Shown here: one piece after another, positions 1 to 29,690 of the stretch
How the letters are laid out: the number at the start of each line of letters is the position of its first letter
Numbering within the stretch: the first letter of the stretch is position 1
Source of the DNA: Spizellomyces punctatus DAOM BR117
Lineage: Eukaryota
Strand: one strand, 5' to 3'
NCBI GenBank assembly: GCA_000182565.2
Contig: KQ257469.1
Length of the DNA: 33,129 nucleotides
Notes under the pieces: model-generated
The model's database searches: none
The model's input: the letters and a program-made list of their open reading frames with translations, nothing else
Told to the model about the DNA's origin: nothing
Program-made: the position numbers and the translations under genes

Positions 1-1323
1 AAGTTTGCAACCATCAGGACGGTCCTGACACTAGCAGCCATGAAGGACATGGAGATTCACCAAATGGATGTCAAAACAGCATTCTTGAATGGGACCATTG
101 AGGAGGACATCTACATGGACCAACCAGAAGGCTTCACCACGGCAAATGGGCTTGTCTGCAAGCTGAAGAAGAGTTTGTACGGGCTAAAGCAAGCTCCAAG
201 AGCCTGGAACAAAGTCATTGACGGGCAACTCAAAGAACTTGGCTTTGAAAGGTGTGAATCAGACCACGGGCTGTACATCAACAAGAAGATGGGCATCCAC
301 CTTATCCTGTATGTGGATGACCTTATTCTGGCATCAAAGGACGACCAGGAGTTGTTAAAACTCAAAGAAGAACTCAAGAAGCAGTTCAAGATGGCTGATA
401 TGGGCCAGTTAGAGCATTTTCTCGGCATTCAAGTGGTCAGGGACAGAGCCAACAGGTCAATCTGGCTCTCCCAACAGCGGTACCTCGGTCAAACATTGAA
501 GAAATTCAACATGAGTAACAGCAAACCAGTTGCCACACCACTAGAGAATGGCCACAAGCTCACCAAGGCCATGTCACCACAAACTGAGGCAGAACAGCAA
601 GAAATGAATGGGGTTCCTTTCAGAAGTGCTGTTGGAAGTCTCATTTATGCAATGCTGGGCACCAGACCAGACATAGCAGCGGCAGTTGGATCAGTCAGCC
701 AGTACCTTTCCAACCCCGGACATCAGCACTGGATAGCAGTCAAACGGATCATGCGGTACCTGAATGGCACCACAGACCTAGGACTTCAACTGGGCGGCAT
801 TCAGAGCGAGTGGGAGCTATCTGCATACTCTGATGCAGATTGGGGCGGTGATTTGGACTTCAGGAAGTCTACCACTGGCTTCTTAGTCAAGATTGGCAGC
901 AGCACAGTCAGCTGGCAAAGCAAGAGGCAACCTACAGTCGCCCTATCATCAACAGAGTCAGAGTACATGGCTCTTTGTCAAGCTACCAAGGAAGTTATCT
1001 GGTTCAGAACACTTCTAGGCGAGCTAGGACATCAGCAAAGTGGTCCTACAACATTGTATGGTGACAATCAGGGTGCCATAGCACTTGCCAACAACCCAAC
1101 ACATCATGCAAGGACCAAACACATTGATGTGTGGCACCACTTCATCAGACAAGCAGTAGAAGACAAGAAAATCAGCCTCAAGTACTGTCAGACAGAAGAA
1201 ATGACGGCTGACATTCTCACCAAGGCCTTACCCAAGACAAAACACCTTAAACTTTGTGGTAAAATGGGTCTCTGTCGGAAATCAGATGATTCACTGAGTG
1301 GGAGTGTTGAGATTCAGGCTTAA
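1..1323 (+). CDS. copia pol, reverse transcriptase + RNase H (5'-partial); the last codons run into the LTR
   Basis: ORF 40..1323 extends upstream without a stop to the window edge; near-identical to the C-terminus of ORF 5835..9353(-). Confidence 0.95.
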   Translation, partial: KFATIRTVLTLAAMKDMEIHQMDVKTAFLNGTIEEDIYMDQPEGFTTANGLVCKLKKSLYGLKQAPRAWNKVIDGQLKELGFERCESDHGLYINKKMGIHLILYVDDLILASKDDQELLKLKEELKKQFKMADMGQLEHFLGIQVVRDRANRSIWLSQQRYLGQTLKKFNMSNSKPVATPLENGHKLTKAMSPQTEAEQQEMNGVPFRSAVGSLIYAMLGTRPDIAAAVGSVSQYLSNPGHQHWIAVKRIMRYLNGTTDLGLQLGGIQSEWELSAYSDADWGGDLDFRKSTTGFLVKIGSSTVSWQSKRQPTVALSSTESEYMALCQATKEVIWFRTLLGELGHQQSGPTTLYGDNQGAIALANNPTHHARTKHIDVWHHFIRQAVEDKKISLKYCQTEEMTADILTKALPKTKHLKLCGKMGLCRKSDDSLSGSVEIQA

Positions 1324-1817
1324 ACCACGCTGTATGATCTATAAATCATGTGAGATCATGCTGGGATGTCATTAGACAGTTCACATCTGATCTGGCTAAG
1401 TTACAACGTGGGGAATTGGACTTAGAGTAATCAGAATGATCACAGACGCGCGTGGGAATGATTTAAAGGGGTAAATCATCATGTAAGCACTCTTAGAAGG
1501 TCTGGAAGGTTTGTGACGATCTAGATCTTCAGGTAATGTGCGCCAAGGCATGGCTGAAGTTGCTGAGCACTGCTGAGCACGGCTGAGCATGTAAACAAGT
1601 GGGCTGAAGCATGTAAACAGCAAACAAAGGCAGAGGGAGGCTGGAGAATGTACTGGGTTATATAAAGGGGACTTTTGAATGTCTCTGGAGTAATATAAGC
1701 GTGTTATCCCACAAGTTACTGCACCCAGAAGTCTTACTAGCGACCACAGGCATTACTAGGCCTTTCAGAAGTGATTTCTACACGGGAAATCAGTGTTCCA
1801 AGCGCTAAGTTTCAATA
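1305..1817 (+). repeat. 3' LTR of copy A, 513 bp, TGTTGAGA...TTTCAATA
   Basis: Starts right after the PPT; same length and sequence family as 10018-10530; TATATAAA at 1659-1666. Confidence 0.95.
1561..1666 (+). promoter_or_regulatory. Putative LTR U3 enhancer/promoter: 3x GCTGAGCA at 10-bp period, 2x GCATGTAAACA, TATA box
   Basis: Motifs are read directly and recur in the other LTR copies; function is inferred from position. Confidence 0.55.
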
Positions 1818-2988
1818 CTTCTCCCTTTGGAAAGGGATGCCTGGTGATCTTTCCATGGCACAGGCTTCACATGGTGATGTTTCTGTGTGATTCTTGACCT
1901 CCACCCCGCTTCCCAGCTGGTTCCTAGCCAAGATTTTGATGCTNNNNNNNNNNNNNNNNNNNNNNNNNNNNNNNNNNNNNNNNNNNNNNNNNNNNNNNNN
2001 NNNNNNNNNNNNNNNNNNNNNNNNNNNNNNNNNNNNNNNNNNNNNNNNNNNNNNNNNNNNNNNNNNNNNNNNNNNNNNNNNNNNNNNNNNNNNNNNNNNN
2101 NNNNNNNNNNNNNNNNNNNNNNNNNNNNNNNNNNNNNNNNNNNNNNNNNNNAAGTTCTTTTCAAGCTTGGGAACAAACCACCACATCTCTGAGGGTACAG
2201 AATCGGTTTCTGCCTGTCTCAAGTGTGATCTGGCCCTTCCCTATTGCCTGAACTGTTCTGTTGTCCGCCAGATGGACTTGAATTGGTGACATCTCCATGT
2301 AATTGGTCATCCAATCCTTCCTGTGTGACATGTGCTGTGAGGCACCCGAGTCCACAATCCACCAGACTGCTCCCTGAGAGGTTTTGGTGTCATCTCCCGA
2401 CTGAGCAAAGAATAGGAACTCATTCTGAGTTGCCTGACTGGTGCTGGCTTGATTGGCTTGTTGTTTGGTGTCCGCCAGAAACTTCCTGCAGTCCTTCTTG
2501 AAGTGACCCTTCTTGTTGCAATAGAAGCACTTCCCTGCTATCTTCTTGATCCCACCATGCTTGCCAACCTTCTGCCCACCATCCCTGCTGAAAAAGGCCT
2601 TCCCTTTGCTATCTCCTTCACCCCCAGCTTCCTTCCTGCGTGTTTCTTCATGCAAAAGCCGTGATGTGAGGAATTCCAGCATCAGAGAATCACTCCTGGC
2701 CTCCAAAGACACCACCAGCTGTTCATAACTCTCTGGTAGGCTGTAGAGTAGGGTGATGACTTGGTCTTCTTCACTGACTGGCGCCCCAATGGCCTCCAAC
2801 TGCTGAGCCATTGTCCTGACCGTGTTTATGTGTCCCAACATGCCCCCAGTGCCATCTTCCATCTTCAGAGTGAGAAATTTCCTCCTTAGATAGAGCCTAC
2901 TGGCAATTCCCTTCCTTTGGTGGACGTCACTGAGCTTTAACCAGGCCTCCTTTGCAGTTACAGCGGTCTGTACATGCATGAGTTGGGC
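1818..2988 (-). pseudogene. copia gag-protease-pre-integrase fragment (copy D), interrupted by copy A, frameshifted, contains gap 1944-2151
   Basis: CFYCNKKGHFKKDC zinc knuckle and WIVDSGASQHM protease motif; 1-bp deletion near 1856 (CTTTCCATGGC versus CTTTCCAATGGC in other copies). Confidence 0.9.
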
Positions 2989-3706
2989 CCTTTATATAAC
3001 CCAGTCCTCNNNNNNNNNNNNNNNNNNNNNNNNNNNNNNNNNNNNNNNNNNNNNNNNNNNNNNNNNNNNNNNNNNNNNNNNNNNNNNNNNNNNNNNNNNN
3101 NNNNNNNNNNNNNNNNNNNNNNNNNNNNNNNNNNNNNNNNNNNNNNNNNNNNNNNNNNNNNNNNNNNNNNNNNNNNNNNNNNNNNNNNNNNNNNNNNNNN
3201 NNNNNNNNNNNNNNNNNNNNNNNNNNNNNNNNNNNNNNNNNNNNNNNNNNNNNNNNNNNNNNNNNNNNNNNNNNNNNNNNNNNNNNNNNNNNNNNNNNNN
3301 NNNNNNNNNNNNNNNNNNNNNNNNNNNNNNNNNNNNNNNNNNNNNNNNNNNNNNNNNNNNNNNNNNNNNNNNNNNNNNNNNNNNNNNNNNNNNNNNNNNN
3401 NNNNNNNNNNNNNNNNNNNNNNNNNNNNNNNNNNNNNNNNNNNNNNNNNNNNNNNNNNNNNNNNNNNNNNNNNNNNNNNNNNNNNNNNNNNNNNNNNNNN
3501 NNNNNNNNNNNNNNNNNNNNNNNNNNNNNNNNNNNNNNNNNNNNNNNNNNNNNNNNNNNNNNNNNNNNNNNNNNNNNNNNNNNNNNNNNNNNNNNNNNNN
3601 NNNNNNNNNNNNNNNNNNNNNNNNNNNNNNNNNNNNNNNNNNNNNNNNNNNNNNNNNNNNNNNNNNNNNNNNNNNNNNNNNNNNNNNNNNNNNNNNNNNN
3701 NNNNNN

Positions 3707-5018
3707 CCCTTCTGTTTGCAGAATTTCTTGAATTCTTCGCCCACATACTCTCCCCCATTGTCTGATCTGAGAGTTTTGATCTTCTGCCCCGTGAAGTTGG
3801 TTGCCCAGGCCTCAAACTCCTTGAATTTGCTGAGAACCTCACTCTTCTCCTTCAGAAGATAAACTGCCGTCATCCTTGACTTGTCATCAATGAATGTGAC
3901 AAAGTACTTTGCCCCACCATGACTTGGTGTCTTCATGGGCCCACACACATCACTGTGAACCACCCCCAGCAATAGAGCCACTCTAGCTGCTTCTCCCTTT
4001 GGAAAGGGATGCCTGGTGATCTTTCCAATGGCACAGGCTTCACATGGTGATGTTTCTGTGTGATTCTTGACCTCCAGACCGCTTCCCAGCTGGTTCCTAG
4101 CCAAGATTTTGATGCTGTTGACATTCAGGTGTCCTAACCTGCGATGCCAGAGGTCCAAACTCATTCCAGAGGCTATGTTTGCATGTTCTCTTGCATGAAA
4201 CATGTATAGACCGCCCCCTAGAGTTCCCTGGATTGCTTCCTGGCCATCTGAAGTCTTGATACAGCATCCCTTGCTGCCAAACTCAACTTTGGCACCATTT
4301 TCAGTGGCTCTTCTTACTGAAAACAAGTTCTTTTCAAGCTTGGGAACAAACCACACGTCTCTGAGGGTACAGAATCGGTTTCTGCCTGTCTCAAGTGTGA
4401 TCTGGCCCTTCCCTATTGCCTGAACTGTTCTGTTGTCTGCCAGATGGACTTGAATTGGTGACATCTCCATGTAATTGGTCATCCAATCCTTCCTGTGTGA
4501 CATGTGCTGTGAAGCACCCGAGTCCACAATCCACCAGACTGCTCCCTGAGAGGTTTTGGTGTCATCTCCCGACTGAGCAAAGAATAGGAACTCATTCTGA
4601 GTTGCCTGACTGGTGCTGGCTTGATTGGCTTGTTGTTTGGTGTCCGCCAGAAACTTCCTGCAGTCCTTCTTGAAGTGACCCTTCTTGTTGCAATAGAAGC
4701 ACTTCCCTGCTATCTTCTTGGTCCCACCATGCTTGCCAACCTTCTGCCCACCATCCCTGCTGAAAAAGGCCTTCCCTTTGCTATCTCCTTCACCCCCAGC
4801 TTCCTTTCTGCGTGTTTCTTCATGCAAAAGCCGTGATGTGAGGAATTCCAGCGTCAGAGAATCACTCCTGGCCTCCAAAGACACCACCAGCTGTTCATAA
4901 CTCTCTGGTAGGCTGTAGAGTAGGGTGATGACTTGGTCTTCTTCACTGACTGGCGCCCCAATGGCCTCCAACTGCTGAGCCATTGTCCTGACCGTGTTTA
5001 TGTGTCCCAGCATGCCCC
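3707..5018 (-). mobile_element. copia gag-protease-integrase fragment (copy E) between assembly gaps, frame open throughout
   Basis: Zinc knuckle, DSGAS protease, WHRRLGH...CEAC zinc finger, and integrase core HSDVCGP / RSDNGGEY. Confidence 0.92.
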
Positions 5019-5504
5019 NNNNNNNNNNNNNNNNNNNNNNNNNNNNNNNNNNNNNNNNNNNNNNNNNNNNNNNNNNNNNNNNNNNNNNNNNNNNNNNNNN
5101 NNNNNNNNNNNNNNNNNNNNNNNNNNNNNNNNNNNNNNNNNNNNNNNNNNNNNNNNNNNNNNNNNNNNNNNNNNNNNNNNNNNNNNNNNNNNNNNNNNNN
5201 NNNNNNNNNNNNNNNNNNNNNNNNNNNNNNNNNNNNNNNNNNNNNNNNNNNNNNNNNNNNNNNNNNNNNNNNNNNNNNNNNNNNNNNNNNNNNNNNNNNN
5301 NNNNNNNNNNNNNNNNNNNNNNNNNNNNNNNNNNNNNNNNNNNNNNNNNNNNNNNNNNNNNNNNNNNNNNNNNNNNNNNNNNNNNNNNNNNNNNNNNNNN
5401 NNNNNNNNNNNNNNNNNNNNNNNNNNNNNNNNNNNNNNNNNNNNNNNNNNNNNNNNNNNNNNNNNNNNNNNNNNNNNNNNNNNNNNNNNNNNNNNNNNNN
5501 NNNN

Positions 5505-5853
5505 AGTACATTCTCCAGCCTCCCTCCGCCTTTGTTTACTGTTTACATGCTTCAGCCCACTTGTTTACATGCTCAGCCGTGCTCAGCAGTGCTCAGCAGC
5601 TTCAGCCATGCCTTGGCAAACATTACCTGAAGATCTAGATCATCACAAACCTTCCAGACCTTCTAAGAGTGCTTACATGATGATTTACCCCTTTAAATCA
5701 TTCCACACGCGTCTGTGATCATTCTGATTACTCGAAGTCCAATTCCCCACGTTGTAACTTAGCCAGATCAGATGTGAACTGTCTAATGACATCCCAGCAT
5801 GATCTCACATGATTTGTAGATCATACAGCGTGGTTTAAGCCTGAATCTCAACA
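5505..5853 (-). repeat. 3' LTR of copy B (partial, truncated by gap)
   Basis: Reverse complement of the LTR, ending ...GAATCTCAACA next to the PPT complement CTCCCACTC. Confidence 0.93.
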
Positions 5854-8800
5854 CTCCCACTCAGTGAATCATCTGATTTCTGACAGAGTCCCATTTTACC
5901 ACAAAGTTTAAGGTGTTTTGTCTTGGGTAGAGCCTTGGTGAGAATGTCAGCCATCACTTCTTCTGTCTGACAGTACTTGAGGCTGATTTTCTTGTCTTCT
6001 ACTGCTTGTCTGATGAAGTGGTGCCACACATCAATGTGTTTGGTCCTTGCATGATGTGTTGGGTTGTTGGCAAGTGCCATGGCGCCCTGATTGTCACCAT
6101 ACAATGTTGTAGGACCACTTTGTTGATGTCCTAGCTCGCCTAGAAGTGTTCTGAACCAGATAACTTCCTTGGTAGCTTGACAAAGAGCCATGTACTCTGA
6201 CTCTGTTGATGAAAGGGTGACTGTAGGTTGCCTCTTGCTTTGCCAGCTGACTGTGCTGCTGCCAATCTTGACTAAGAAGCCAGTGGTAGACTTCCTGAAG
6301 TCCAAGTCACCGCCCCAATCTGCATCAGAGTATGCAGACAGCTCCCACTTGCTCTGAATGCCGCCCAGTTGAAGTCCTAGGTCTGTGGTGCCATTCAGGT
6401 ACCGCATGATCCGTTTGACTGCTATCCAGTGCTGATGTCCGGGGTTGGAAAGGTACTGGCTAATTGATCCAACTGCTGCTGCTATGTCTGGTCTGGTGCC
6501 CAGCATTGCATAAATGAGACTTCCAACAGCACTTCTGAAAGGAACCCCATTCATTTCCTGCTGTTCTGCCTCAGTTTGTGGTGACATGGCCTTGGTGAGC
6601 TTCTGGCCATTCTCTAGTGGTGTGGCAACTGGTTTGCTGTTACTCATATTGAATTTCTTCAATGTTTGACCGAGGTATCGCTGTTGGGAGAGCCAGATTG
6701 ACCTGTTGGCTCTGTCCCTGACCACTTGGATGCCGAGAAAATGCTCTAACTGGCCCATATCAGCCATCTTGAACCGCTTCTTGAGTTCTTCTTTGAGTTT
6801 TAACAACTCCTGGTTGTCCTTTGATGCGAGAATAAGGTCATCCACATACAGGACAAGGTGGATGCCCATCTTCTTGTTGATGTACAGCCCATGGTCTGAT
6901 TCACACCTTTCAAAGCCAAGTTCTTTGAGTTGCCCATCAATGACTATGTTCCAGGCTCTTGGAGCTTGCTTTAACCCATACAAACTCTTCTTTAGCTTGC
7001 AGACAAGTCCTTTTGCCATGGCAAAGCCTTCTGGTTGGTCCATGTAGATGTCCTCCTCAATGGTCCCATTCAAGAATGCTGTTTTGACATCCATTTGGTG
7101 AATCTCCATGTCCTTCATGGCTGCTAGTGTGAGAACTGTCCTGATGGTTGCAAACTTGACTACTGGGGCAAATGTCTCCTTGTAGTCCAGTCCTTCAACT
7201 TGGGAGTATCCTTTGGCTACCAGTCTGGCCTTGTAGTGCTCTACAGAGCCATCTGACTTGAGTTTCAGCTTGAAAACCCACTTGCAGCCAACTGTGGATC
7301 TTCCTGGTGGTAGTTTGACTAAGTCCCATGTCTGATTCTCCATCAGAGAGTCATATTCTGCTTTGACAGCCGCCTCCCACTGTTTGGCATCATGTCTGGT
7401 CCTAGCTTCAGCCAGAGTGCTGGGTTCTTCCTGTGGAACTTCTCCAATGGTGAAGGCAAAAGCCAGATTTGACTGGGTTGGCTTTGCAATCCACCACTCT
7501 CCCGGTGGTTTGTGAAATCTGGCACTCTTCCTGCTGAGTTCTGGCACTTCCTCAACATCCTGGAAGTCGTCCCCATCATCTTCTGATGCTGAAGAGTTGT
7601 CTGGAGTGATGCTAGATGGTCTCTGAGTCTCTTGAACCGTCCCTAGCCCTTCTTGGTTGTCCAAGAATGAAGGCTCCCCTCCCAGAGGCATCTGTAGCTC
7701 TTGGTCTTGCTGTGGTACACTCTGCAGTCGCTGCTGAGTGCTCCACATCAAGTTTTCATCAAAGATGATGTCCCTTGACATGACAACTTGGTTCATTTCA
7801 GGTACCCACAGTCTGTAGGCCTTACTCTGAGTGCTGTAGCCGACCATGACTGCCTTCTTGGCCTTCTCATCAAGTTTTGACCGCTTTTCCTTTGGAATAT
7901 GAGTGTAGGCCACGCAGCCAAACACTCTGAGGTGCTGGAGATCTGGTTTACCGCCTGTAAACTCTTGAAATGGTGTTGATTGGTTGCTGAGTGCTGCAGT
8001 GGGGCTCCTGTTCCTGAGATAGGCCGCTGTCATGATTGCCTCGCCCCAGAACTTGTGGCTGAGTCCACTGTGGTGCAGCATGCACCTTCCCATTTCCACC
8101 AGCGTCCTGTTCATCCTCTCAGCAACACCATTCTGCTCTGGTGTGTAGGGGGTGCTGAATTGCTGCTGAATTCCCTTCTGTTTGCAGAATTTCTTGAATT
8201 CTTCGCCCACATACTCTCCCCCATTGTCTGATCTGAGAGTTTTGATCTTCTGCCCCGTGAAGTTGGTTGCCCAGGCCTCAAACTCCTTGAATTTGCTGAG
8301 AACCTCACTCTTCTCCTTCAGAAGATAAACTGCCGTCATCCTTGACTTGTCATCAATGAATGTGACAAAGTACTTTGCCCCACCATGACTTGGTGTCTTC
8401 ATGGGCCCACACACATCACTGTGAACCACCCCCAGCAGTAGAGCCGCTCTAGCTGCTTCTCCCTTTGGAAAGGGATGCCTGGTGATCTTTCCAATGGCAC
8501 AGGCTTCGCATGGTGATGTTTCTGTGTGACTCTTGACCTCCAGACCACTTCCCAGCTGGTTCCTAGCCAAGATTTTGATGCTGTTGACATTCAGGTGTCC
8601 TAACCTGCGATGCCAGAGGTCCAAACTCATTCCAGAGGCTATGTTTGCATGTTCTCTTGCATGAAACATGTATAGACCGCCCCCTAGAGTTCCCTGGATT
8701 GCTTCCTGGCCATCTGAAGTCTTGATACAGCATCCCTTGCTGCCAAACTCAACTTTGGCACCATTTTCAGTGGCTCTTCTTACTGAAAACAAGTTCTTTT

Positions 8801-9838
8801 CAAGCTTGGGAACAAACCACACGTCTCTGAGGGTACAGAATCGGTTTCTGCCTGTCTCAAGTGTGATCTGGCCCTTCCCTATTGCCTGAACTGTTCTGTT
8901 GTCCGCCAGATGGACTTGAATTGGTGACATCTCCGTGTAATTGGTCATCCAATCCTTCCTATGTGACATGTGCTGTGAGGCACCCGAGTCCACAATCCAC
9001 CAGACTGCTCCCTGAGAGGTTTTGGTGTCATCTCCTGACTGAGCAAAGAATAGGAACTCATTCTGAGTTGCCTGACTGGTGCTGGCTTGATTGGCTTGTT
9101 GTTTAGTGTCCGCCAGAAACTTCCTGCANNNNNNNNNNNNNNNNNNNNNNNNNNNNNNNNNNNNNNNNNNNNNNNNNNNNNNNNNNNNNNNNNNNNNNNN
9201 NNNNNNNNNNNNNNNNNNNNNNNNNNNNNNNNNNNNNNNNNNNNNNNNNNNNNNNNNNNNNNNNNNNNNNNNNNNNNNNNNNNNNNNNNNNNNNNNNNNN
9301 NNNNNNNNNNNNTCCAGAGTCAGAGAATCACTCCTGGCCTCCAAAGACACCACCAGCTGTTCATACTCTCTGGTAGGCTGTAGAGTAGGGTGATGACTTG
9401 GTCTTCTTCACTGACTGGCGCCCCAATGGCCTCCAACTGCTGAGCCATTGTCCTGACCGTGTTTATGTGTCCCAACATGCCCCCAGTGCCGTCTTCCATC
9501 TTCAGAGTGAGAAATTTCCTCCTTAGATAGAGCCTACTGGCAATTCCTTTCCTTTGGTGGACGTCACTGAGCTTTAACCAGGCCTCCTTTGCAGTTACAG
9601 CGGTCTGTACATGCATGAGTTGGGCATCACTCAGTGACAGAGCAATTACTGCCATTGCCCACTCATCCCTTCTCCTCCAATCCTTGTCAGAGGTTCCCTC
9701 CATGCTGTCATCTCCTTCAATCACACCCCACAGCCCCTTTTCCTTCAGCAACATTGTCATTTTGAACTTCCAGAGGTGGTAGTTCATGCCATTGAACTTT
9801 TCCATTGTGAGTTTGGTGTCCAAGTCCGTGTTTGACAT
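5835..9838 (-). pseudogene. copia gag-pol single-ORF polyprotein with a 1-bp frameshift near 9364 (real or sequencing error next to gap 9129-9312)
   Basis: ORFs 9320..9838 and 5835..9353 join into one polyprotein; TCATACTCTC here versus TCATAACTCTC in copies D and E. Confidence 0.9.
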
Positions 9839-10003
9839 GTCTGAGCTGATTTGGTGAGTGGATTTGTTGTTGGGGAAGAGGTGAAATCGTCCTAGTATGG
9901 TAGGTGGTCCAAATATGAGGTTGGGAAGAAGATAGGTCTGTCAGGAAGATGGTGTGGCGGTCGGAAAAGAGATTTGAAGCAGGAAAATATCAGTGATAGC
10001 TAT

Positions 10004-10017
10004 CAGGGCTCATAACC
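10004..10017 (-). other. Primer binding site GGTTATGAGCCCTG, complementary to the anticodon stem-loop of initiator tRNA-Met (half-tRNA priming as in Ty5 and Drosophila copia)
   Basis: Lies directly inside the 5' LTR; its complement CAGGGCTCATAACC is the fungal tRNA-iMet anticodon arm. Confidence 0.9.
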
Positions 10018-10530
10018 TATTGAAACTTAGCGCTTGGAACACTGATTTCCCATGTAGAAATCACTTCTGAAAGGCCTAGTAATGCCTGTGGCCGCTAGTA
10101 AGACTTCTGGGTGCAGTAACTTGTGGGATAACACGCTTGTATTAATCCAGAGACATTCAAAAGTCCCCTTTATATAACCCAGTATATTCTCCAGCCTCCC
10201 TCCGCCTTTGTTTACTGTTTACATGCTTCAGCCCACTTGTTTACATGCTCAGCCGTGCTCAGCAGTGCTCAGCAGCTTCAGCCATGCCTTGGCAAACATT
10301 ACCTGAAGATCTAGATCATCACAAACCTTCCAGACCTTCTAAGAGTGCTTACATGATGATTTACCCCTTTAAATCATTCACACACGCATCTGTGATCATT
10401 CTGGTTACTCTAAGTCCAATTCCCCACGTTGTAACTTAGCCAAATCAGATGTGAACTGTCTAATGACATCCCAGCATGATCTCACATGATTTATAGATCA
10501 TACAGCGTGGTTTAAGCCTGAATCTCAACA
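10018..10530 (-). repeat. 5' LTR of copy B, 513 bp
   Basis: Full reverse-complement match to 1305-1817 apart from SNPs. Confidence 0.96.
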
Positions 10531-11560
10531 GTTCTGCCTGAGAGCTTGCAGAACCTGCTTGAGGTGGTCCAGGTGGCCTTCTGGGGTCTTGGAGTAGATG
10601 AGGATATCATCTAGGTAGACAATGACAAAGATGTCCAAGAAGGGTCTTAGAACATCATTCATCAAAGTCATGAAAGTGGCTGGGGCATTGGTCATTCCAA
10701 AGGACATGACCAAGAACTCAAAGTGACCATATCTGGTTCTGAAAGCTGTCTTGGGGATGTCTTCTGGGTGGATCCTGATCTGGTAGTAGCCTGACTTGAG
10801 ATCCAGCTTGGTAAAGACCTGGGCTCCATTCAGTCTGTCCATCAGCTCATCAATCCTGGGGAGGGGATATCTGTTCTTGATGGTGATCTTGTTCAGAGCC
10901 CTGTAGTCCACACACATCCTCAAAGACCCTTCTTTCTTCTTGACAAAGAGGATGGGTGCTCCAAAGGGGCTCTTGGATGGTCTGATGTGGCCTGCCTCCA
11001 GAAGTTCAGACAGCTGCTTCCTCAGTTCTTCTAACTCCAAAGAAGAGAGGTGGTAGGTTGGTCTCCAGGGGGTCTGGTTGGGGTCACTGAGTTCAATTCT
11101 GTGATCCACTGTTCTCTCAGGGGGAAGTCCTGGGGGAAGCTCTTCAGCAAAGACATCTTGATAGTCTTCAAGAAGCTTGGTGACTTTGGAATCCATGGTG
11201 TCTGGAGGGGTGCTGGTATCTTGAGGGTTCTTGAAATACACAGCAAAAGCTGTTGCTGTCCTCTTCTTCAGGGTTCTGGCCAACATCTTTGCTGATACCA
11301 TGGTGATATTGGGTTCTGGCTTGGGGGTGGTAGGTGCTGGTACAGTGGTGGCAAACCACCTGACTCTAGGGTGCTGGGAGGTCTCAAAGGTGATGGTTCC
11401 CTTCTGGTAGTTGATACTGGGGTTCCTCCAAGCAAACCAGGGAACTCCCAAGATTATATCAAACTTCACAGGTGCCACTATGAAGTCAGATATCTCAGAG
11501 TAGGTGCAAACAGAGTACTGTAGGCTTTTAACAAAGCCAGTTCCTGGGTACTTCTTGTTG
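10531..11560 (-). mobile_element. Ty3/gypsy (Tf2/chromovirus-like) pol fragment: protease C-terminal half and RT up to just past YLDD, cut by the copy B LTR
   Basis: [61 protein letters not shown] and [10 protein letters not shown], with no stop in the frame. Confidence 0.95.
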
Positions 11561-11633
11561 CCTTCTTGGACATCTTTGTCATTGTCTACCTAGATGATAT
11601 CCTCATCTACTCCAAGACCCCAGAAGGCCACCT
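11561..11633 (+). repeat. 73-bp inverted duplication of gypsy RT segment 10571-10643 (covers YLDD)
   Basis: CCTTCTTGGACATC...GAAGGCCACCT is the exact reverse complement of 10571-10643. Confidence 0.93.
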
Positions 11634-11789
11634 TGGCAAAAACATTACCTGAAGATCTAGATCATCACAAACCTTCCAGACCTTCTAAGACTGCTTACAT
11701 GATGATTTACCCCTTTAAATCATTCCCACACGTGTCTGTGATCATTCTGATTATTCTAAGTCCAATTCCCCACGTTGTAACTTAGCCAA
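11631..11789 (-). repeat. Internal copia LTR fragment, inverted relative to the adjacent LTR
   Basis: Matches 10288-10443 with several SNPs and a small indel. Confidence 0.9.
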
Positions 11790-12186
11790 CTTAGAGTAAC
11801 CAGAATGATCACAGATGCGTGTGTGAATGATTTAAAGGGGTAAATCATCATGTAAGCACTCTTAGAAGGTCTGGAAGGTTTGTGATGATCTAGATCTTCA
11901 GGTAATGTTTGCCAAGGCATGGCTGAAGCTGCTGAGCACTGCTGAGCACGGCTGAGCATGTAAACAAGTGGGCTGAAGCATGTAAACAGTAAACAAAGGC
12001 GGAGGGAGGCTGGAGAATATACTGGGTTATATAAAGGGGACTTTTGAATGTCTCTGGATTAATACAAGCGTGTTATCCCACAAGTTACTGCACCCAGAAG
12101 TCTTACTAGCGGCCACAGGCATTACTAGGCCTTTCAGAAGTGATTTCTACATGGGAAATCAGTGTTCCAAGCGCTAAGTTTCAATA

Positions 12187-12200
12187 GGTTATGAGCCCTG
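12187..12200 (+). other. Primer binding site of copy C (half tRNA-iMet)
   Basis: GGTTATGAGCCCTG directly after the LTR. Confidence 0.9.
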
Positions 12201-12365
12201 ATAGCTATCACTGATATTTTCCTGCTTCAAATCTCTTTTCTGATGGCCACACCATCTTCCTGACGGACCTATCCTCTTCCCAACCTCATATTTGGACCAC
12301 CTACCATACTAGGACGATTTCACCTCTTCCCCAACAACAAATCCACTCACCAAATCAGCTCAGAC

Positions 12366-15300
12366 ATGTCAAACACGGACTTGGACACCAAACTCACAAT
12401 GGAAAAGTTCAATGGCATGAACTACCACCTCTGGAAGTTCAAAATGACAATGTTGCTGAAGGAAAAGGGGCTGTGGGGTGTGATTGAAGGAGATGACAGC
12501 ATGGAGGGAACCTCTGACAAGGATTGGAGGAGAAGGGATGAGCGGGCAATGGCAGTAATTGCTCTGTCACTGAGTGATGCCCAACTCATGCATGTACAGA
12601 CCGCTGTAACTGCAAAGGAGGCCTGGTTAAAGCTCAGTGACGTCCACCAAAGGAAGGGAATTGCCAGTAGGCTCTATCTAAGGAGGAAATTTCTCACTCT
12701 GAAGATGGAAGATGGCACTGGGGGCATGTTGGGACACATAAACACGGTCAGGACAATGGCTCAGCAGTTGGAGGCCATTGGGGCGCCAGTCAGTGAAGAA
12801 GACCAAGTCATCACCCTACTCTACAGCCTACCAGAGAGTTATGAACAGCTGGTGGTGTCTTTGGAGGCCAGGAGTGATTCTCTGATGCTGGAATTCCTCA
12901 CATCACGGCTTTTGCATGAAGAAACACGCAGGAAGGAAGCTGGGGGTGAAGGAGATAGCAAAGGGAAGGCCTTTTTCAGCAGGGATGGCGGGCAGAAGGT
13001 TGGCAAGCATGGTGGGATCAAGAAGATAGCAGGGAAGTGCTTCTATTGCAACAAGAAGGGTCACTTCAAGAAGGACTGCAGGAAGTTTCTGGCGGACACC
13101 AAACAACAAGCCAATCAAGCCAGCACCAGTCAGGCAACTCAGAATGAGTTCCTATTCTTTGCTCAGTCGGGAGATGACACCAAAACCTCTCAGGGAGCAG
13201 TCTGGTGGATTGTGGACTCGGGTGCCTCACAGCACATGTCACACAGGAAGGATTGGATGACCAATTACATGGAGATGTCACCAATTCAAGTCCATCTGGC
13301 AGACAACAGAACAGTTCAGGCAATAGGGAAGGGCCAGATCACACTTGAGACAGGCAGAAACCGATTCTGTACCCTCAGAGACGTGTGGTTTGTTCCCAAG
13401 CTTGAAAAGAACTTGTTTTCAGTAAGAAGAGCCACTGAAAACGGTGCCAAAGTTGAGTTTGGCAGCAAGGGATGCTGTATCAAGACTTCAGACGGTCAGG
13501 AAGCAATCCAGGGAACTCTAGGCGGCGGTCTATACATGTTTCATGCAAGAGAACATGCAAACATAGCCTCTGGAATGAGTGTGGACCTCTGGCATCGCAG
13601 GTTAGGACACCTGAACGTCAACAGCATCAAAATCTTGGCTAGGAACCAGCTGGGAAGCAGGGTGGAGGTCAAGAATCACACAGAAACATCACCATGTGAA
13701 GCCTGTGCCATGGAAAGATCACCAGGCATCCCTTTCCAAAGGGAGAAGCAGCTAGAGCGGCTCTATTGCTGGGGGTGGTTCACAGTGATGTGTGTGGGCC
13801 CATGAAGACACCAAGTCATGGTGGGGCAAAGTATTTTGTCACATTCATTGATGACAAGTCAAGGATGACAGCAGTTTATCATTTGAAGGAGAAGAGTGAG
13901 GTTCTCAGCAAATTCAAGGAGTTTGAGGCCTGGGCAACCAACTTCACGGGGCAGAAGATCAAAACTCTCAGATCAGACAATGGGGGAGAGTATGTGGGCG
14001 AAGAATTCAAGAAATTCTGCAAACAGAAGGGAATTCAGCAGCAATTCAGCACCCCCTACACACCAGAGCAGAATGGTGTTGCTGAGAGGATGAACAGGAC
14101 GCTGGTGGAAATGGGAAGGTGCATGCTGCACCACAGTGGACTCAGCCACAAGTTCTGGGGCGAGGCAATCATGACAGCGGCCTATCTCAGGAACAGGAGC
14201 CCCACTGCAGCACTCAGCAACCAATCAACACCATTTCAAGAGTTTACAGGCGGTAAACCAGATCTCCAGCACCTCAGAGTGTTTGGCTGCGTGGCCTACA
14301 CTCATATTCCAAAGGAAAAGCGGTCAAAACTTGATGAGAAGGCCAAGAAGGCAGTCATGGTCGGCTACAGCACTCAGAGTAAGGCCTACAGACTGTGGGT
14401 ACCTGAAATGAACCAAGTTGTCATGTCAAGGGACATCATCTTTGATGAAAACTTGATGTGGAGCACTCAGCAGCGACTGCAGAGTGTACCACAGCAAGAC
14501 CAAGAGCTACAGATGCCTCTGGGAGGGGAGCCTTCATTCTTGGACAACCAAGAAGGGCTAGGGACGGTTCAAGAGACTCAGAGACCATCTAGCATCACTC
14601 CAGACAACTCTTCAGCATCAGAAGATGATGGGGACGACTTCCAGGATGTTGAGGAAGTGCCAGAACTCAGCAGGAAGAGTGCCAGATTTCACAAACCACC
14701 GGGAGAGTGGTGGATTGCAAAGCCAACCCAGTCAAATCTGGCTTTTGCCTTCACCATTGGGGAAGTTCCACAGGAAGAACCCAGCACTCTGGCTGAAGCT
14801 AGGACCAGACATGATGCCAAACAGTGGGAGGTGGCTGTCAAAGCAGAATATGACTCTCTGATGGAGAATCAGACGTGGGACTTGGTCAAACTACCACCAG
14901 GAAGATCCACAGTTGGCTGCAAGTGGGTTTTCAAGCTGAAACTCAAGTCAGATGGCTCTGTAGAGCGCTACAAGGCCAGACTGGTAGCCAAAGGATACTC
15001 CCAAGTTGAAGGACTGGACTACAAGGAGACATTTGCCCCAGTAGTCAAGTTTGCAACCATCAGGACGGTTCTGACACTAGCAGCCATGAAGGACATGGAG
15101 ATTCACCAAATGGATGTCAAAACAGCATTCTTGAATGGGACCATTGAGGAGGACATCTACATGGACCAACCAGAAGGCTTTGCCACGGCAAAAGGACTTG
15201 TCTGCAAGCTAAAGAAGAGTTTTGTATGGGTTAAAGCAAGCTCCAAGAGCCTGGAACAAAGTCATTGATGGGCAACTCAAAGAACTTGGCTTTGAAAGGT

Positions 15301-15826
15301 GTGAATCAGACCACGGGCTGTACATCAACAAGAAGATGGGCATCCCACCTTGTCCTGTATGTGGATGACCTTATTCTCGCATCAAAGGACAACCAGGAGT
15401 TGTTAAAACTCAAAGAAGAACTCAAGAAGCGGTTCAAGATGGCTGATATGGGCCAGTTAGAGCATTTTCTCGGCATCCAAGTGGTCAGGGACAGAGCCAA
15501 CAGGTCAATCTGGCTCTCCCAACAGCGGTACCTCGGTCAAACATTGAAGAAATTCAATATGAGCAACAGCAAACCAGTTGCCACACCACTAGAGAATGGC
15601 CAGCAGCTCACCAAGGCCATGTCACCACAAACTGAGGCAGAACAGCAAGAAATGAATGGGGTTCCTTTCAGAAGTGCTGTTGGAAGTCTCATTTATGCAA
15701 TGCTGGGCACCAGACCAGACATAGCAGCAGCAGTTGGATCAGTTAGCCAGTACCTTTCCAACCCTGGACATCAGCACTGGATAGCAGTCAAATGGATCAT
15801 GTGGTACCTGAATGGCACCACAAACA
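12366..15826 (+). pseudogene. copia gag-pol with three frameshifts (about 13710, 15220 and 15345) and a 3' truncation
   Basis: ORFs 12366..13805, 13766..15268 and 15265..15879 tile the copy B polyprotein; 1-bp indels are visible against copies A and B. Confidence 0.92.
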
Positions 15827-16579
15827 TATTGAAACTTAGTGCTTGGAACACTGATTTCCCACATAGAAATCACCTCTGAAAGGCGTAGTAATGGCTGTGA
15901 CTGCTAGTAAGACTTCCGGGTGCAGTAACTTGTAGGATAACACACTTGTATTAATCCTGAGATGTTCAAAAGTCCCCTTTATATAACCCAGTACATTCTC
16001 CAGCCTCCCTCCACCTTTGTTTACTGTTTGCATGCTTCAGCCCACTTGTTTACATGCTCAGCCATGCTCAGCAATGCTCAGCAGCTTCAGCCCACTTGTT
16101 TACATGCCCAGCCATGCCCAGCCATGCTCAGCAATGCTCAGCAGCTTCAGTAATGCCTTGGCAAACATTACCTGAAGATCTAGACCATCACAAACCCAGA
16201 GATGTTCAAAAGTCCCCCTTATATAACCCAGTACATTCTCCAGCCTCCCTCCACCTTTGTTTACTGTTTGCATGCTTCAGCCCACTTGTTTACATGCTCA
16301 GCCATGCTCAGCAATGCTCAGCAGCTTCAGCCATGCCTTGGCAAACATTACCTGAAGATCTAGATCACCACAAACCTTCCAGACCTTCTAAGAGTGCTTA
16401 CATGATGATTTACCCCTTTAAATCATTCACACACGCATCTGTGATCATTCTGGTTACTCTAAGTCCAATTCCCCACATTGTAACTTAGCCAAATCAGATG
16501 TGAACTGTCTAATGACATCCCAACATGATCTCACATGATTTATAGATCATACAGTGTGATTTAAGCCTGAATCTCAACA
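15827..16579 (-). repeat. Solo copia LTR, 753 bp, with a 240-bp internal duplication of the enhancer/TATA region
   Basis: Ends are TATTGAAAC (15827) and ATCTCAACA (16579). GAGATGTTCAAAAGTCC occurs at 15959 and 16199. No PBS, PPT or matching target-site duplication. Confidence 0.92.
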
Positions 16580-16659
16580 TAACTGCCTGTATGTTGTCCA
16601 GACTTTTCCAGAAGATAAACAAGAGCAAACAAGAGCATCATTCTCCAGGCCAACAAGAT

Positions 16660-16775
16660 GGATGACAGCAGATGTCTCACTAAGGCATTGCCTAAAGTCA
16701 AGCACCTCAAATCTTGTGGTATAATAAGCCTATGCATTCACACTTGTGATTCCCTGAGTTGGAGTGTTGAAGATT
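16660..16775 (+). pseudogene. Old diverged copia RNase H end, PPT and start of an LTR (TGTTGA at 16765)
   Basis: LTKALPKVKHLKSCG...DSLSWSVE versus LTKALPKTKHLKLCG...DSLSGSVE in copy A. Confidence 0.8.
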
Positions 16776-16971
16776 ATGCTGGAAAGCTTGGTGCATCAAA
16801 TTGCAGTTCACACCCATGGGTTAGGGTTAGAGCAGCTGTGGCATATGGGTCAACTGAAAAAATTGGTACTCTGTAGGCTTCATCATGAAAATTGTTAGAT
16901 ATTAGTAAACAGATCATTAAGAGTTGCAGATATATTAGTAATGAACTGTTTCAGGGTACATGCCAGGAGGA

Positions 16972-17160
16972 TTGGATCAGGTCATGAGGTCAGGATCCTC
17001 AAACAAGAGTTGGACTGGGTCCTAGATCAGGGAACTAGAATAATGTAACTGGATCAGAGAACTAGAACTAGTTACTAGATTGGAGAACTAAAATCAGGAA
17101 GCTAGAATCAGAAACCAAGATCAGGTAGCCAAATCATGCATCTGGCTGTGGGAACTAGTG
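16972..17160. repeat. Degenerate short tandem repeat (GATCAG/GAACTA units, roughly 12-nt scale)
   Basis: Recurrent GATCAG(G/A) and GAACTAG motifs. Confidence 0.45.
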
Positions 17161-17697
17161 AAGGGAACTGAATGGGTATTTAGGTTAGAGAACCATAGTT
17201 AGGGGTGCCATTATGAAGTAAATCAGTTATTAAAGAAGTATGCATCAATGTCCTGGAATAAGAAAGAGGTGTCAAGTGCAAAAATTACAGAAAAACCCCA
17301 TAGCTATCACCTGACTTTCTACCCCTGTATCTTTGTGAAAATACCATACAAAATAAGGAACAGAGTACTTGGGAATCTCAAGTTTTCTGACACCACAGGA
17401 CATCATATCATATAGGATCATTTACCATGGCAGACAATAGTAGTGTTTGATGTGTTTCCAGTATGAGAAGAGCAACTTCTAAGTTTGCTTTTGCTTTGGT
17501 AGTATCCACCAGCAATAAGAAAGTACTGTCAATAAAATATATATTTATACTAGTTCTGTTGGCAAGTTCCTTGGCAGAACACTTTATCAAAACTGTAGTT
17601 CTATGGTTGCTGGGCAATGGATAATGCCTCCTAAGCTACATAATTAGGCTGGCTACTGGTAATTACTCTGTATCTCTTCTGCTTTTAACTATAATAT

Positions 17698-18053
17698 TGT
17701 TGAGACTTTAATATAATGGCAGTATGTAATTTATAAATTATATGGGAGCATGCTGGTATATTATCAAGCAGTTTACATCTGGTTTGGTTAAGTCAGAACA
17801 TGAGGGAAAATGGACTTTAAAGTTATTCCTGCACATGTCTGTTCTGAAGTACTTGAATAATAGATCCTCCTATAAGCAGCATTAGAAAGCATAAGGAGGT
17901 CTGGGGTGGCAGAGATGTTCAGGTAATGTTTGCCAAGGTATTGCTGAAGCTGCTGACCATGGCTGAGTATGGCTGAAGAATATAAGCAATTGGCTAAAGT
18001 ATGGAAACCATAAACAAAGGTTGGGGGAGGCTGGAGTATGCACTGGGCTATTA
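17698..18053 (+). repeat. Old, AT-shifted relic LTR of the same copia lineage, truncated near the TATA box
   Basis: Starts TGTTGAGA and is collinear with 1305-1660 (e.g. TTCAGGTAATGTTTGCCAAGG, AAACAAAGG...GGAGGCTGGAG). Confidence 0.85.
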
Positions 18054-18450
18054 CTGAATTCATGTTATGCCATTCTGCTTAATTTATAAGGTAATCCTTT
18101 ATATTTAAGTTACAACTATATTTATCTAAGTATAGCTCCATGTTGGTAAGAATAAAAATAAAAGATATAATATAGGTCTTATATGTATTATAAAATATAT
18201 GGTAATAATATCTAATCAATACTGTGGGTCAGGTGGGGTTATCTGCCAAAATACAGTTTTGTCCTCAATTTTCTAAATGGAGTGGGCCTAAGCAGATGGG
18301 CTCTGTAATCCAACCATGCCCCAGTCAGGTGATTAGATGACATTACCAGTATGTCAGGATGTCGAATAGCATGGAGCCGACATTTGATAACCGCCTGATA
18401 ACCGTCAGATTGCGTCTCAGTGACATGACCACATTTCCTTCCAATATTGC

Positions 18451-21400: not shown

Positions 21401-21593
21401 TTTTATCATTTATCAGGAGCCGAACTAAAATTGAGCTGGCCCTCGACAAAGGTAATCAGTAACGCGTGGGAATGTCCGACGTGTCGCTCAGAACCTCGGA
21501 GTAGCATATATATATACGAGAGAATTCCTTAAGCAAACCCGAGAAGCTTTGATAAGAGGGGACGAATTTAAGCGTACAAGATCTGTTTGCTGA
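18451..21593 (+). CDS. TGL3: Patatin-domain triacylglycerol lipase, TGL3/TGL4/SDP1 family (most like TGL3), about 25 exons; start codon uncertain
   Basis: Hand-spliced translation gives AKTYAEWEMIAADLD..GNDVWK, YDYKLIQFRL, GLLRNLGGI, TALLLEGGATFGLFHLGVVKAL, ISGSSVG (GxSxG), LLNYLTAPNVLIWSAACAS, FNVNHFILSQANPYIAPFL and WILKGEQSTWP...IELALDK. Confidence 0.88.
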
Positions 21594-23968: not shown

Positions 23969-24043
23969 GTCTACTGGACCAAGTTAACGCGTTAACGCGT
24001 CGCCCGCATATTACTTGTAGGTGTCCAGCTTTTTTGGCAACCA
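23969..24043. promoter_or_regulatory. 75-bp divergent spacer and putative bidirectional promoter with two ACGCGT (MCB-like) boxes
   Basis: CCDC61 ATG at 23968(-), predicted VPS52 ATG at 24044(+); GTTAACGCGTTAACGCGT at 23983-24000. Confidence 0.65.
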
Positions 24044-27000: not shown

Positions 27001-27351
27001 GTGGTTATTGCTTGGATATTAGAGAAATTCGAAAGAGTGGCAGCTGACTTCAATACGTGCTGGAAAAATGCGCTTACAAGCATAAATCAATCTGTGATGC
27101 AGAACTTTTCCAACTTTCAAAACGGGGCGCGCATCCTGCATGCGGCACTGACGCAGCTTCTACTCTTCTACAAGCGCTTTTTTACGCTTTGGGAGAAACG
27201 CTTTGTCACAAAGAAACCCAAAGTCCAACCAGTTGGACTGCAAAGTGTCATGGTCGAGATCAAGAAGTTCAGGTTGGTATTGTTGTGCCATTGTTCGCTG
27301 TGAAGTTGGCTCGAAGGTTAACCTCATTCCAACAGATCAAGTTTTCAATAG
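24044..27351 (+). CDS. VPS52: Vacuolar protein sorting 52 (GARP complex subunit, Sac2 family), multi-exon
   Basis: GADLRDYAKHI, ACDDILQKMETLMSGFHSDLGTVSAEIEILQEQSHSMSIKLKNR, LLMDNASSEYLF, LLWPRFQAIMDLHIESLK, PHYVTRRYAEF, FLINNFDLV and MVEIKKFRSSFQ*. Confidence 0.93.
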
Positions 27352-27958
27352 TCTTGTATAGAAATGGAATTGCCGGATCTGCTGGCTCAGACATTAGCGG
27401 CGGTGAACAAATTGCAGGGGTGAGACGCCGTTGTTTCCGATGCAGGCGTACGTAGCAAGCCCATCGCGATGAAGGCCACTTTTGCAAACAAGCATCCTCA
27501 GTGGTACATGATCCTTTAAGATGCCCTATAGATCTGTAGATTTCAGAAAGGATTGAAAGGGAAGGCATTGCGCCGTTAATTAAATCGCGTGAGCATCAAC
27601 CACCCATGGTCGGAGACAAATGGGTCAGCCACAATCTTGATTCTCACAATACTCTGATTCATGCACACCCTTCGCTGCCACCAAGCCGAAACTGAGCTAA
27701 TACAATGGTTTGTCGGCGTTCTGGAAGCCATTTTGCCGCCTGCTGTGCTGAAAGCGTCTCGGTTGAAACTCGCTGGAAAATCATATTTCCACTAATGCCC
27801 ATGAACACCGAGCGTGCCACAATAATTACAGTATATTCTCGATATGGATAGCCTCAAGACGACACTCGGCGAACATGACAATGTTATTGCAGCAATAACG
27901 AAAAAATCCAAGCCTTCAATTTCAGTTCTATGGGCATATTTTCGATTCAAAGGAACAT

Positions 27959-28916: not shown

Positions 28917-29690
28917 TTTATGTTTGATGTGAGTTCTTCGGGAAGATACTGAAGAAAATGTCGAGAGGAAGCGGTATTAGGAGTCGAAATGCGGCTGGAC
29001 GATGCGTGTGTGAGTGTTGGAGTTGGTCAATGTTACGCGTCCAATATTATCGCATGCGTGTGATTTGAGCGGCGTTTTGTGATGTTTATTTTTGGGCCAA
29101 ACTCGACTAGTTGATAATATACATTGCAGCAATAGATACTATTATCGTCCCAGGAATCATAGCCTTTTTTTGAACCGTTAACATATTCATCACAGATGTA
29201 TTCAAGTAGAATATGGCAGAAGCTATCACTACTTCTCAGATGTCATCTATTTTTCCAGCCAAACTTCAACCATGTGTGAGTATCTTCAGATCCAAGAGGC
29301 GATGGTATGCAATAATGTGGTCCATAAGAGTACATCTTGCATCCATCGATTATTCTGCCGCTGGTAATGAGCTGTTCTGTTGATCGATTGTCTACTATGT
29401 TCCATCTGATCCTTCGTTTTTTCGTCAATCTCATCACCCTATTCGACTCCAAATACGTCCAAGTTCGACAATGCAATTGTGCTGGTGCAATAGGCCACCC
29501 TGGCCTCTCCATTCGACATGCAAGTTACTATAGTTCACTGGCTTGATTGCAGGGATATATCCATAGTGTGGAGGTGATTGAAAATGGCACTAAGACCCAT
29601 TGTTATCCGGATAATCCGGTTAATCATATCGCATAATCAGAACCCCCTCTATCGCTCAGATTGGTGTGGCATGCAGCGGTGTGGCATGCA

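Follow-up and report, generated by a model that had tools for sequence, protein, structure and literature searches.

A probable nest of one Ty1/copia lineage in a CpG-depleted, nearly silent domain of the chytrid Spizellomyces punctatus

The stretch of DNA analyzed here, referred to as the window, comprises 33,129 nucleotides of contig KQ257469.1 (assembly GCA_000182565.2) of Spizellomyces punctatus DAOM BR117. Sequences of a single family of Ty1/copia retrotransposons fill positions 1–16,579, as identified by Pfam searches and by BLAST against copy M, a minus-strand element that served as the reference for the map and for the reference positions in Table 1. The open reading frames (ORFs) of the cluster, translated with the standard code, contain the Pfam domains RVT_2, rve, SH3_retrovirus, Pol_BBD, gag_pre-integrs, Retrotran_gag_2, and zf-CCHC. 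The original prediction, which was made from the sequence alone, claimed that five copies or fragments of one copia family are present in both orientations, and the BLAST map of positions 1–18,362 agrees with it. It also claimed that the cluster includes no recognizable host gene. This holds for all of the DNA to the left of 18.7 kb: none of the 11 ORFs of at least 55 residues between 16.56 and 18.7 kb has a Pfam match, and the DNA to the left of these is of copia or gypsy origin.

The existence of the cluster was correctly predicted; however, the prediction omitted four runs of N within it (1944–2151, 3010–3706, 5019–5504, and 9129–9312), which total 1,575 bases. The runs hide most of the junctions, including the 3' end of copy M and the far ends of fragments X and Y, and as a result no copy displays both of its ends. 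Therefore, the target-site duplication is unreadable for every copy. The N runs of 184 nt (9129–9312) and 208 nt (1944–2151) have exactly the lengths predicted from other copies, which speaks for the local order being correct. Such exact lengths are unusual for gaps sized by read pairs. The other two runs are 697 and 486 nt long, and no judgement on the order of the pieces is drawn from them. The possibility that the N runs are sequence-based masks was rejected, because the same parts of the element are readable in other copies. The region from 9313 to 33129 is free of gaps and holds the 5' end of M, the gypsy fragment, copy C, the inverted long terminal repeat (LTR), and both of the old relics.

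Table 1. Features of the window. LTR, long terminal repeat; RT, reverse transcriptase; RNaseH, ribonuclease H; PR, protease; IN, integrase; PPT, polypurine tract.
Feature	Position	Strand	Description and evidence
Copy A	1..1817	+	3' part: C-terminal part of RT, RNaseH, and full 3' LTR (1305-1817); leaves the window leftward
Fragment X (copy D of the original prediction)	1818..2988	-	gag-PR-preIN part, reference positions 906-2075
LTR-like 21 nt (CCTTTATATAACCCAGT)	2989..3009	-	resembles the TATA-box part of the LTR, inverted; read by eye
Fragment Y	3707..5018	-	gag-PR-IN part, reference positions 1048-2358; flanked by N runs
Copy M	5505..10530	-	most complete copy, nearly full length
Gypsy-order RT fragment	10531..11560	-	protease-like stretch, then RT; RVT_1, E=7.4e-34; ORF 10525-11589
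Fold-back copy of gypsy 10571-10643	11561..11633	+	inverted, 100% identity over 73 nt
LTR fragment (LTR positions 82-244)	11631..11795	-	BLAST against M
Copy C	11789..15822	+	both ends truncated; LTR position 116 to RNaseH, reference position ~4153
Older inverted LTR	15827..16579	-	753 nt; left side fused to the broken end of C
CpG-free stretch	16435..18362		1,929 nt; closes at the border of the CpG-depleted domain
Old relic 1	16662..16775	+	pol 3' end, PPT, and first 10 nt of LTR
Old relic 2	17699..18053	+	LTR starting TGTTGAGAC
Host genes	18727..28531		Pfam on exon ORFs; RNA; expressed
DUF3336-patatin lipase	18.7-21 kb	+	Pfam
Transcribed exons	21-24 kb		RNA
Vps52	24.6-26.8 kb	+	Pfam
Cofilin	28.04-28.53 kb	-	Pfam; RNA depth up to 333

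A complete element of the family measures approximately 5.2 kb, with gag-pol in a single frame of about 1,335 codons. It is bounded by LTRs of 513 nt (TGTTGAG...TTTCAATA), which are seen at 10018–10530 in copy M and at the end of copy A. The polypurine tract GAGTGGGAG precedes the 3' LTR, and the primer-binding site (PBS) GGTTATGAGCCCT follows directly after the last base of the LTR in the two copies whose 5' LTR is visible. The PBS sequence occurs exactly twice in the window, at 10005–10017 and 12187–12199. The 1,097-residue ORF of copy M contains the domains Pol_BBD (residues 44–123), gag_pre-integrs (165–214), rve (234–330), SH3_retrovirus (391–462), and RVT_2 (598–839, E=1.5e-78), and the domains Retrotran_gag_2 and zf-CCHC are located upstream, in the ORF of copy C. 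The gene order gag-protease-integrase-RT-RNaseH with a copia-type RT is that of the Ty1/copia elements (Pseudoviridae), as are the direct LTRs, the PBS after the 5' LTR, and the polypurine tract before the 3' LTR. The sharing of one frame by gag and pol is seen from the ORF of copy C at 12264–13805, which covers gag with the zinc knuckle, protease, and pre-integrase, together with that of copy M at 5835–9128, which extends from protease to RNaseH. None of the copies in the window is open throughout gag-pol.

Judged by its bases, the PBS matches the anticodon stem-loop of the initiator methionine transfer RNA (tRNA-Met), the arrangement of half-tRNA priming. The sequence GGTTATGAGCCC, which represents 12 of the 13 PBS bases, lies within probe oPA1732 specific for yeast initiator Met-tRNA, and in this probe the PBS-matching bases adjoin the complement of the anticodon loop (PMC11230868). 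The half-tRNA PBS of the copia/Ty5 type proposed by the original prediction has thus been verified by means of a published yeast probe and not of the host's own tRNA. The 13th and 14th bases presumably also fit the yeast initiator tRNA-Met. The half-tRNA type of PBS is common to copia and other hemiviruses and is not limited to Ty5, and as an attribute of the present family the label "Ty5-like" refers to the PBS type alone. A protein search scored 8,000 candidates, of which 5,557 reached E≤1e-20. Among the best 120 of these 5,557 proteins, which were inspected, the closest are metagenome proteins with 60, 54, 50, and 49% identity, and oomycete copia elements reach 43–47%. No match named Ty5 is present among the 120, and those that carry names are all from oomycetes. 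The search returned nothing above 60% identity, so that annotated host proteins provide no copy count. When the literature was searched for copia elements of S. punctatus, a paper on DIRS/Ngaro elements was the sole result.

The elements Ty5, Tca5, Tps5, and Tdh5 (Pseudoviridae), the first of which is from Saccharomyces and the last three of which are from Serinales, are half-tRNA primed and have the same type of PBS. In the clusters of Tps5, copies that look intact are mixed with truncated ones and with LTRs alone, on both strands (PMC2997560), and in this they resemble the cluster from S. punctatus. However, no closer sequence kinship to the Ty5 group than to any other copia element was seen for the S. 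punctatus family; its best relatives among the matches listed are the 60% metagenome protein and the oomycete elements. Furthermore, the host is a chytrid with 5-methylcytosine (5mC) and trimethylation of lysine 9 of histone H3 (H3K9me3). Drosophila copia and the hemiviruses have alike priming by half of the initiator tRNA-Met and a single ORF; by contrast, their hosts are different. The hemivirus classification of the International Committee on Taxonomy of Viruses and of Peterson-Burch and Voytas (2002) reportedly includes Drosophila copia.

The copies of the family differ in their completeness and in the ways in which they are broken. Copy A (RVT_2, E=1.3e-54) has its polypurine tract at 1296–1304 and its pol stop at 1324–1326, and is 97.0% identical to copy M over 1,654 nt. 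Fragment X, which includes the N run 1944–2151, adjoins the end of the LTR of A. It had been proposed that copy A sits inside the element to which this fragment belongs; only one junction, at 1817/1818, is visible. Fragment X is 99.5% identical to copy C over 837 nt, 807 nt of which are at 100%, and aligns to C gap-free across position 13710, where fragment Y and copy M need a gap. Given this near-identity and the shared state at 13710, X may have arisen from C by a very recent duplication, or be a redundant piece of the assembly. The resemblance of the 21 nt that follow X to the LTR, which is short and weak, suggests that X is fused to an LTR-internal piece and not to the remainder of gag. 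Fragment Y is 98.8% identical to M and 98.4% identical to C. In copy M itself, the pol ORF is open, the gag ATG is at 9838, and the 3' LTR is visible only over 5505–5853, the remainder being within an N run. The two LTRs of M are 98.0% identical over the visible 350 nt. A deletion of one nucleotide is present at 9366, which is 53 nt from a contig edge.

The 5' LTR of copy M meets the RVT_1 fragment at 10531, as expected from the claim that one copy abuts a gypsy RT. One contig from the library X1, the kind of which is not on record, carries the gypsy sequence unbroken across position 10531, and this uninterrupted sequence indicates that M was inserted into a gypsy-type element. The end of the gypsy fragment is folded back upon itself (Table 1), and a second fold-back is located at the truncated start of copy C, where arms at 11640–11761 and 11789–11910 form a 122-nt LTR palindrome with a 27-nt spacer. 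In copy C the LTR ends at 12186 and the ATG is at 12366. Single-base indels are present in C at 13710, 15220, and 15344, and reads show the other state of the family at all three positions. Moreover, 111 reads from the chromatin immunoprecipitation (ChIP) library X22, the target of which is not on record, continue with normal copia sequence beyond the broken end of C at 15822. Every copy is broken by truncation, fold-back junctions, or single-base indels, and no copy is demonstrably intact. The extra T at 13710 was found in only 321 of 599 X22 reads, and the frame-breaking difference of C is thus not private to it; the frameshifted state may be present in a large share of the family copies.

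The inverted LTR to the right of copy C is 92.6–96.4% identical to the young LTRs. The prediction that the region contains a solo LTR was not confirmed, as this LTR lacks matching flanks, is duplicated internally, and runs directly into the truncated end of C. At 16034–16336 it contains a tandem duplication of 180 nt as well as an expanded set of 10-nt repeats (CATGCTCAGC); the 10-mer of these repeats is present in three copies in every young LTR. Alignment supports the two much older relics of the same lineage that had been predicted to the right of the inverted LTR. In relic 1, 87 of 107 positions are identical to the family sequence, with a score of 62 compared with 27 for the best of 100 shuffles. 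Relic 2 matches the LTR at 244 of 322 positions over 17719–18051 (72% identity by BLAST). The predicted occurrence of young and old layers at one spot is therefore verified: the young pieces are 96.5–99.5% identical to each other, the inverted LTR occupies the intermediate range given above, and the relics are 76–81% identical. These tiers of identity indicate that at least three generations of one lineage are present at the spot.

It is very unlikely that much of the apparent nesting is a product of the assembly, in which contigs derived from one or two copies were misplaced and fold-backs arose as chimeras. The presence of the four N runs inside the cluster is consistent with such an error, as are the near-identity of X and C, when other pairs differ by 1–3.5%, the occurrence of two fold-back junctions, perfect or nearly so, within 250 bp of each other, and the order of fragments X and Y, which is not collinear with any single element. 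However, copies A, Y, M, and C have pairwise identities of 96.5–99.0% and differ from each other at many positions, which shows that at least four distinct copies are real. The gap-free part of the window alone includes pieces of all three generations and the gypsy fragment, and two of the N runs have exactly the expected lengths. In addition, independent reads demonstrate that several copia-to-copia junctions exist in the organism.

The copia interior is covered to a depth of about 750 by X22 reads, compared with a summed depth of approximately 60 in single-copy gene bodies, which corresponds to a ratio of about 12. In X1, the contigs of the copia interior have a word depth of 56–59 compared with 2.6–3.3 for single-copy sequences, a ratio of about 19, and summed bins reach up to about 25. 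These copy ratios are rough, X22 being a ChIP library and X1 of unrecorded kind. The genome thus contains approximately 12–25 equivalents of the family, and only two to three interiors are in the window, which indicates that most of the copies are located elsewhere. Reads also connect parts of the element that are not adjacent in the window. The LTR end (12186) is joined to 12991 in 94 X22 reads with 39 start points, which skips 804 nt including the PBS; the join represents a deletion derivative that exists in two or more copies, or else a nested insertion in the same orientation in the genome. Furthermore, the LTR end is joined to LTR position ~169 on either strand (8 and 18 reads), to 10460 (7 reads), and to 13548 (3 reads). 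The LTR start (10530) is joined to a repeat at 30321 in three reads and one X1 contig, which implies that another copia copy is inserted in a copy of that repeat elsewhere. These additional LTR joins indicate that junctions between transposable elements (TEs) are common for the family, whether in the concealed parts of the locus or elsewhere in the genome.

The DNA of the cluster is strongly depleted of CpG. The ratio of observed to expected CpG is 0.19 over positions 1–18,360, where 178 CpG are present in 16,785 readable bases. The ratio is 0.20–0.32 in the copia pieces and 0.00 in the gypsy fragment and in the relic zone; by contrast, it is 0.95 in the genes at 18.4–29 kb. The dinucleotides TG and CA are in excess in the depleted zone (1.35–1.65). 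The 2,200 nt at 16101–18300 contain one CpG, whereas approximately 84 are expected from the composition. The first CpG after the CpG-free stretch is at 18363, and 25 more follow up to 18,786. Comparison of the copies reveals 96 transitions against 25 transversions. Although CpG is depleted fivefold, 46 of these transitions are at CpG sites. The pattern is probably the footprint of cytosine methylation.

The cluster is nearly silent. In the raw RNA run X20, about 6/100 of which was read, the depth in the copia interior is 0–0.3 despite the family being multi-copy, compared with 2–333 in the neighboring genes. A depth of 2.4+0.8 was recorded in the bin 11734–12400, which covers the LTR, PBS, and gag start of copy C. 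The strong CpG depletion with its sharp border at 18,363, together with the near-silence in RNA, is a new observation. 5mC is confined to transposons in Spizellomyces (PMC12695648), and the TEs of S. punctatus are strongly associated with trimethylation of lysine 27 of histone H3 (H3K27me3) and with H3K9me3 (bioRxiv 2025.03.17.643675). The CpG depletion and the silence fit this published marking, and the silent domain that had been predicted for the locus is therefore supported both by the CpG ratios on the two sides of the border and by near-zero RNA. As judged from the base composition and the reads, the cluster is probably a transcriptionally silent, cytosine-methylated island.

Expressed genes begin approximately 350 bp from the border at 18,363. 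The scan from 16.56 kb rightward yielded 123 stop-to-stop ORFs of at least 55 residues, 14 of which have a Pfam match with E≤0.01, and RNA reads across the flanking genes define GT..AG introns of 53–87 nt. One cofilin exon shares 99% identity with a protein of Spizellomyces sp. 'palustris' and 81–89% with those of other Spizellomycetales, which confirms that the host is a zoosporic fungus, as inferred in the original prediction. In the ChIP library X21, the target of which is not on record, promoter-type peaks at 18404–19070, 23073–24406, and 28409–29742 coincide with gene starts; the X22 signal dips there and is flat across gene bodies. The first X21 peak is within about 400 bp of the CpG border. 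The DNA at 29.5–33.1 kb is again repeated and in part CpG-depleted, so that the genes occupy an island of about 11 kb with a repeat zone on either side.

The region at 29076–30399 beside the cofilin gene is repeated and expressed, with an X22 depth of about 190, an X1 depth of 62, an RNA depth of up to 80, and a strong X21 peak. Loose read ends crowd at 29562–29975, and neither an Rfam family nor a tRNA was found in 29076–30399. The plus strand at 30995–32317 contains adjacent ORFs of 141 and 298 residues with a CCHC-like motif (CKFCQKKRHWNVFC) and a ratio of observed to expected CpG of 0.3–0.5. They have no Pfam match, and the region is probably the gag region of another retroelement. Four short tandem arrays with periods of 10–44 are located at 32309–32758. 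An ORF on the minus strand at 32738–33127 leaves the window at its right edge; it has a weak match to AAA_12 (E=0.007), and its best score in the ESM Atlas, 0.77, is uninformative. No tRNA genes and no Rfam families at the gathering score were found in the window. The single match to a telomere motif in the window, with one mismatch, is at the level of chance, since 6 of 100 shuffles reach the same. A subtelomeric location was rejected because the window contains no telomere repeat.

Positions 1–18,362 are likely to represent a transposon nest, in which members of one Ty1/copia lineage landed and survived repeatedly. The oldest element, now 76–81% identical to the young copies, was followed by the intermediate element represented by the inverted LTR, and then by at least four young copies, one of which split a gypsy-type element. 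Insertions into the gene-dense remainder of the compact genome would be purged, whereas those into dead, methylated TE DNA would be harmless. Tethering of the integrase to silent chromatin may add to the pile-up. Methylation-driven decay of CpG to TpG and illegitimate recombination would then degrade the copies.

Several observations weigh against this explanation or restrict it. Each insertion is deduced from a single junction, because target-site duplications are unreadable. The two fold-backs within 250 bp could be either a real rearrangement of the hairpin type or an assembly chimera. What can be read of the extent and order of the nest is limited by the N runs and by the part of the cluster that lies to the left of the window. 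Most of the CpG depletion in the young copies is common to all of them, and was therefore inherited from their source copy; it is not a proof of methylation at the locus, for which only the relic zone and the gypsy fragment speak. The depth of X22 over the single-copy relic zone is 11–33, compared with about 60 in gene bodies, and this low signal does not look like that of a heterochromatin mark. Finally, selection and integrase targeting are indistinguishable from one locus.

Targeting would replace selection as the cause of the nest if the integrase were tethered to silent chromatin by its C-terminal tail, in the manner of Ty5. This explanation is tentative and somewhat unlikely. Given that the family accounts for well below 1% of the genome, its self-nesting is far above the random expectation. 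Nested joints include copy A beside fragment X and the inverted LTR in an older relative, and reads show at least five more kinds of joints between copia sequences. The original prediction named the acidic, Ser-rich tail of the integrase, which ends in HKPPGEWW, as a candidate targeting determinant. In an alignment of 12 sequences, comprising the ORF of copy M and 11 relatives with 43–60% identity, the stretch between the SH3 domain of the integrase and the RT varies in length and is acidic throughout the set. Its KPPGEWW end belongs to a motif, PRRSxRxxxPxEWW, that is also present in oomycete elements, and the Ser-rich piece DNSSAS is not conserved even in the closest relative (60% identity). 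Because the linker is variable and acidic, its end motif is shared, and its Ser-rich part is unconserved, the tail is not recognizable as a targeting determinant. The comparison instead shows a generic variable copia linker with a shared motif, contrary to the prediction. However, the closest relative, P0001, also has the acidic patch EDDGDDFQD, and P0003 has it in part, so that a role in targeting is conceivable.

The precedent for tethering is Ty5, the integrase C-terminus of which binds Sir4 (PMC5911963), and the background on Ty5 and heterochromatin that accompanied the prediction is correct in this respect. The pattern of nesting expected from tethering is also expected from purifying selection in a genome dense with genes. 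The targeting hexapeptide of Ty5 and its partner Sir4 are not known outside yeasts, and chytrids are not known to have a Sir4 pathway of the yeast kind; the former counts against tethering in S. punctatus.

A further interpretation places the cluster at the edge of a chytrid chromosome's regional centromere or pericentromere, to which the copia family would be directed. This is improbable. At least 18 kb are free of host ORFs while the adjacent 11 kb carry at least three named genes, one lineage was inserted repeatedly over a long time, the zone is silent and CpG-depleted, and the cluster continues past the left edge of the window. A gene-free, silent region that consists only of TEs and is bounded by genes is seen on the right side; its left boundary is outside the window. 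Precedents exist in other fungi. Each chromosome has a single Tps5 or Tdh5 cluster, located at the proposed centromere (PMC2997560), yeasts of several orders have centromeres marked by clusters of Ty5 (bioRxiv 2025.04.25.647736), and Cryptococcus centromeres are rich in LTR retrotransposons (PMC5866544). The first two of them show that the prediction had the background on Ty5 clusters at yeast centromeres right. The Tcn1–Tcn6 centromeres of Cryptococcus are likewise ORF-free nests of truncated LTR elements. However, they bind CENP-A, there is one nest per chromosome, and the elements are restricted to centromeres, whereas the nest of S. punctatus is known from sequence at one locus. Cryptococcus centromeres are silent and marked by 5mC and by dimethylation of lysine 9 of histone H3 (H3K9me2). 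The distribution of H3K9me2 and 5mC at these centromeres is the subject of PMC8407549.

Other observations argue against a centromere. The greater part of the family equivalents is located outside the window, and the window contains neither a satellite array nor an AT-rich core. The GC content is 0.43–0.52 in the young copies, 0.43–0.50 in the genes, and 0.37–0.41 only in the relic zone; the young copies thus form no GC-poor trough. The X21 peaks are of the promoter type, and the profile is therefore not CENP-A-like, with the reservation about the target of X21 given above. Expressed housekeeping genes are present from about 350 bp beyond the border. Literature searches for chytrid centromeres returned no paper. 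Nothing in the sequence or the reads points to a kinetochore function. By analogy with the yeasts, the nest might be part of a chytrid centromere with half-tRNA-primed copia elements directed to it; however, the chance of this is slight.

The cluster is a common kind of TE junkyard, and the part of the original prediction that concerns the centromere and the targeting tail is speculation. The locus documents a young, previously undescribed family of half-tRNA-primed copia elements in a model chytrid, and provides a clean example of a sharp border, visible in the sequence, between probably methylated TE DNA and expressed genes. In addition, it draws attention to a repeat region that is poorly assembled. 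If the cluster were part of a centromere, it would be the first mapped centromere of a chytrid, and centromeres built of retrotransposon clusters would extend to the early-diverging flagellated fungi, which would bear on the age of the link between LTR elements and fungal centromeres.

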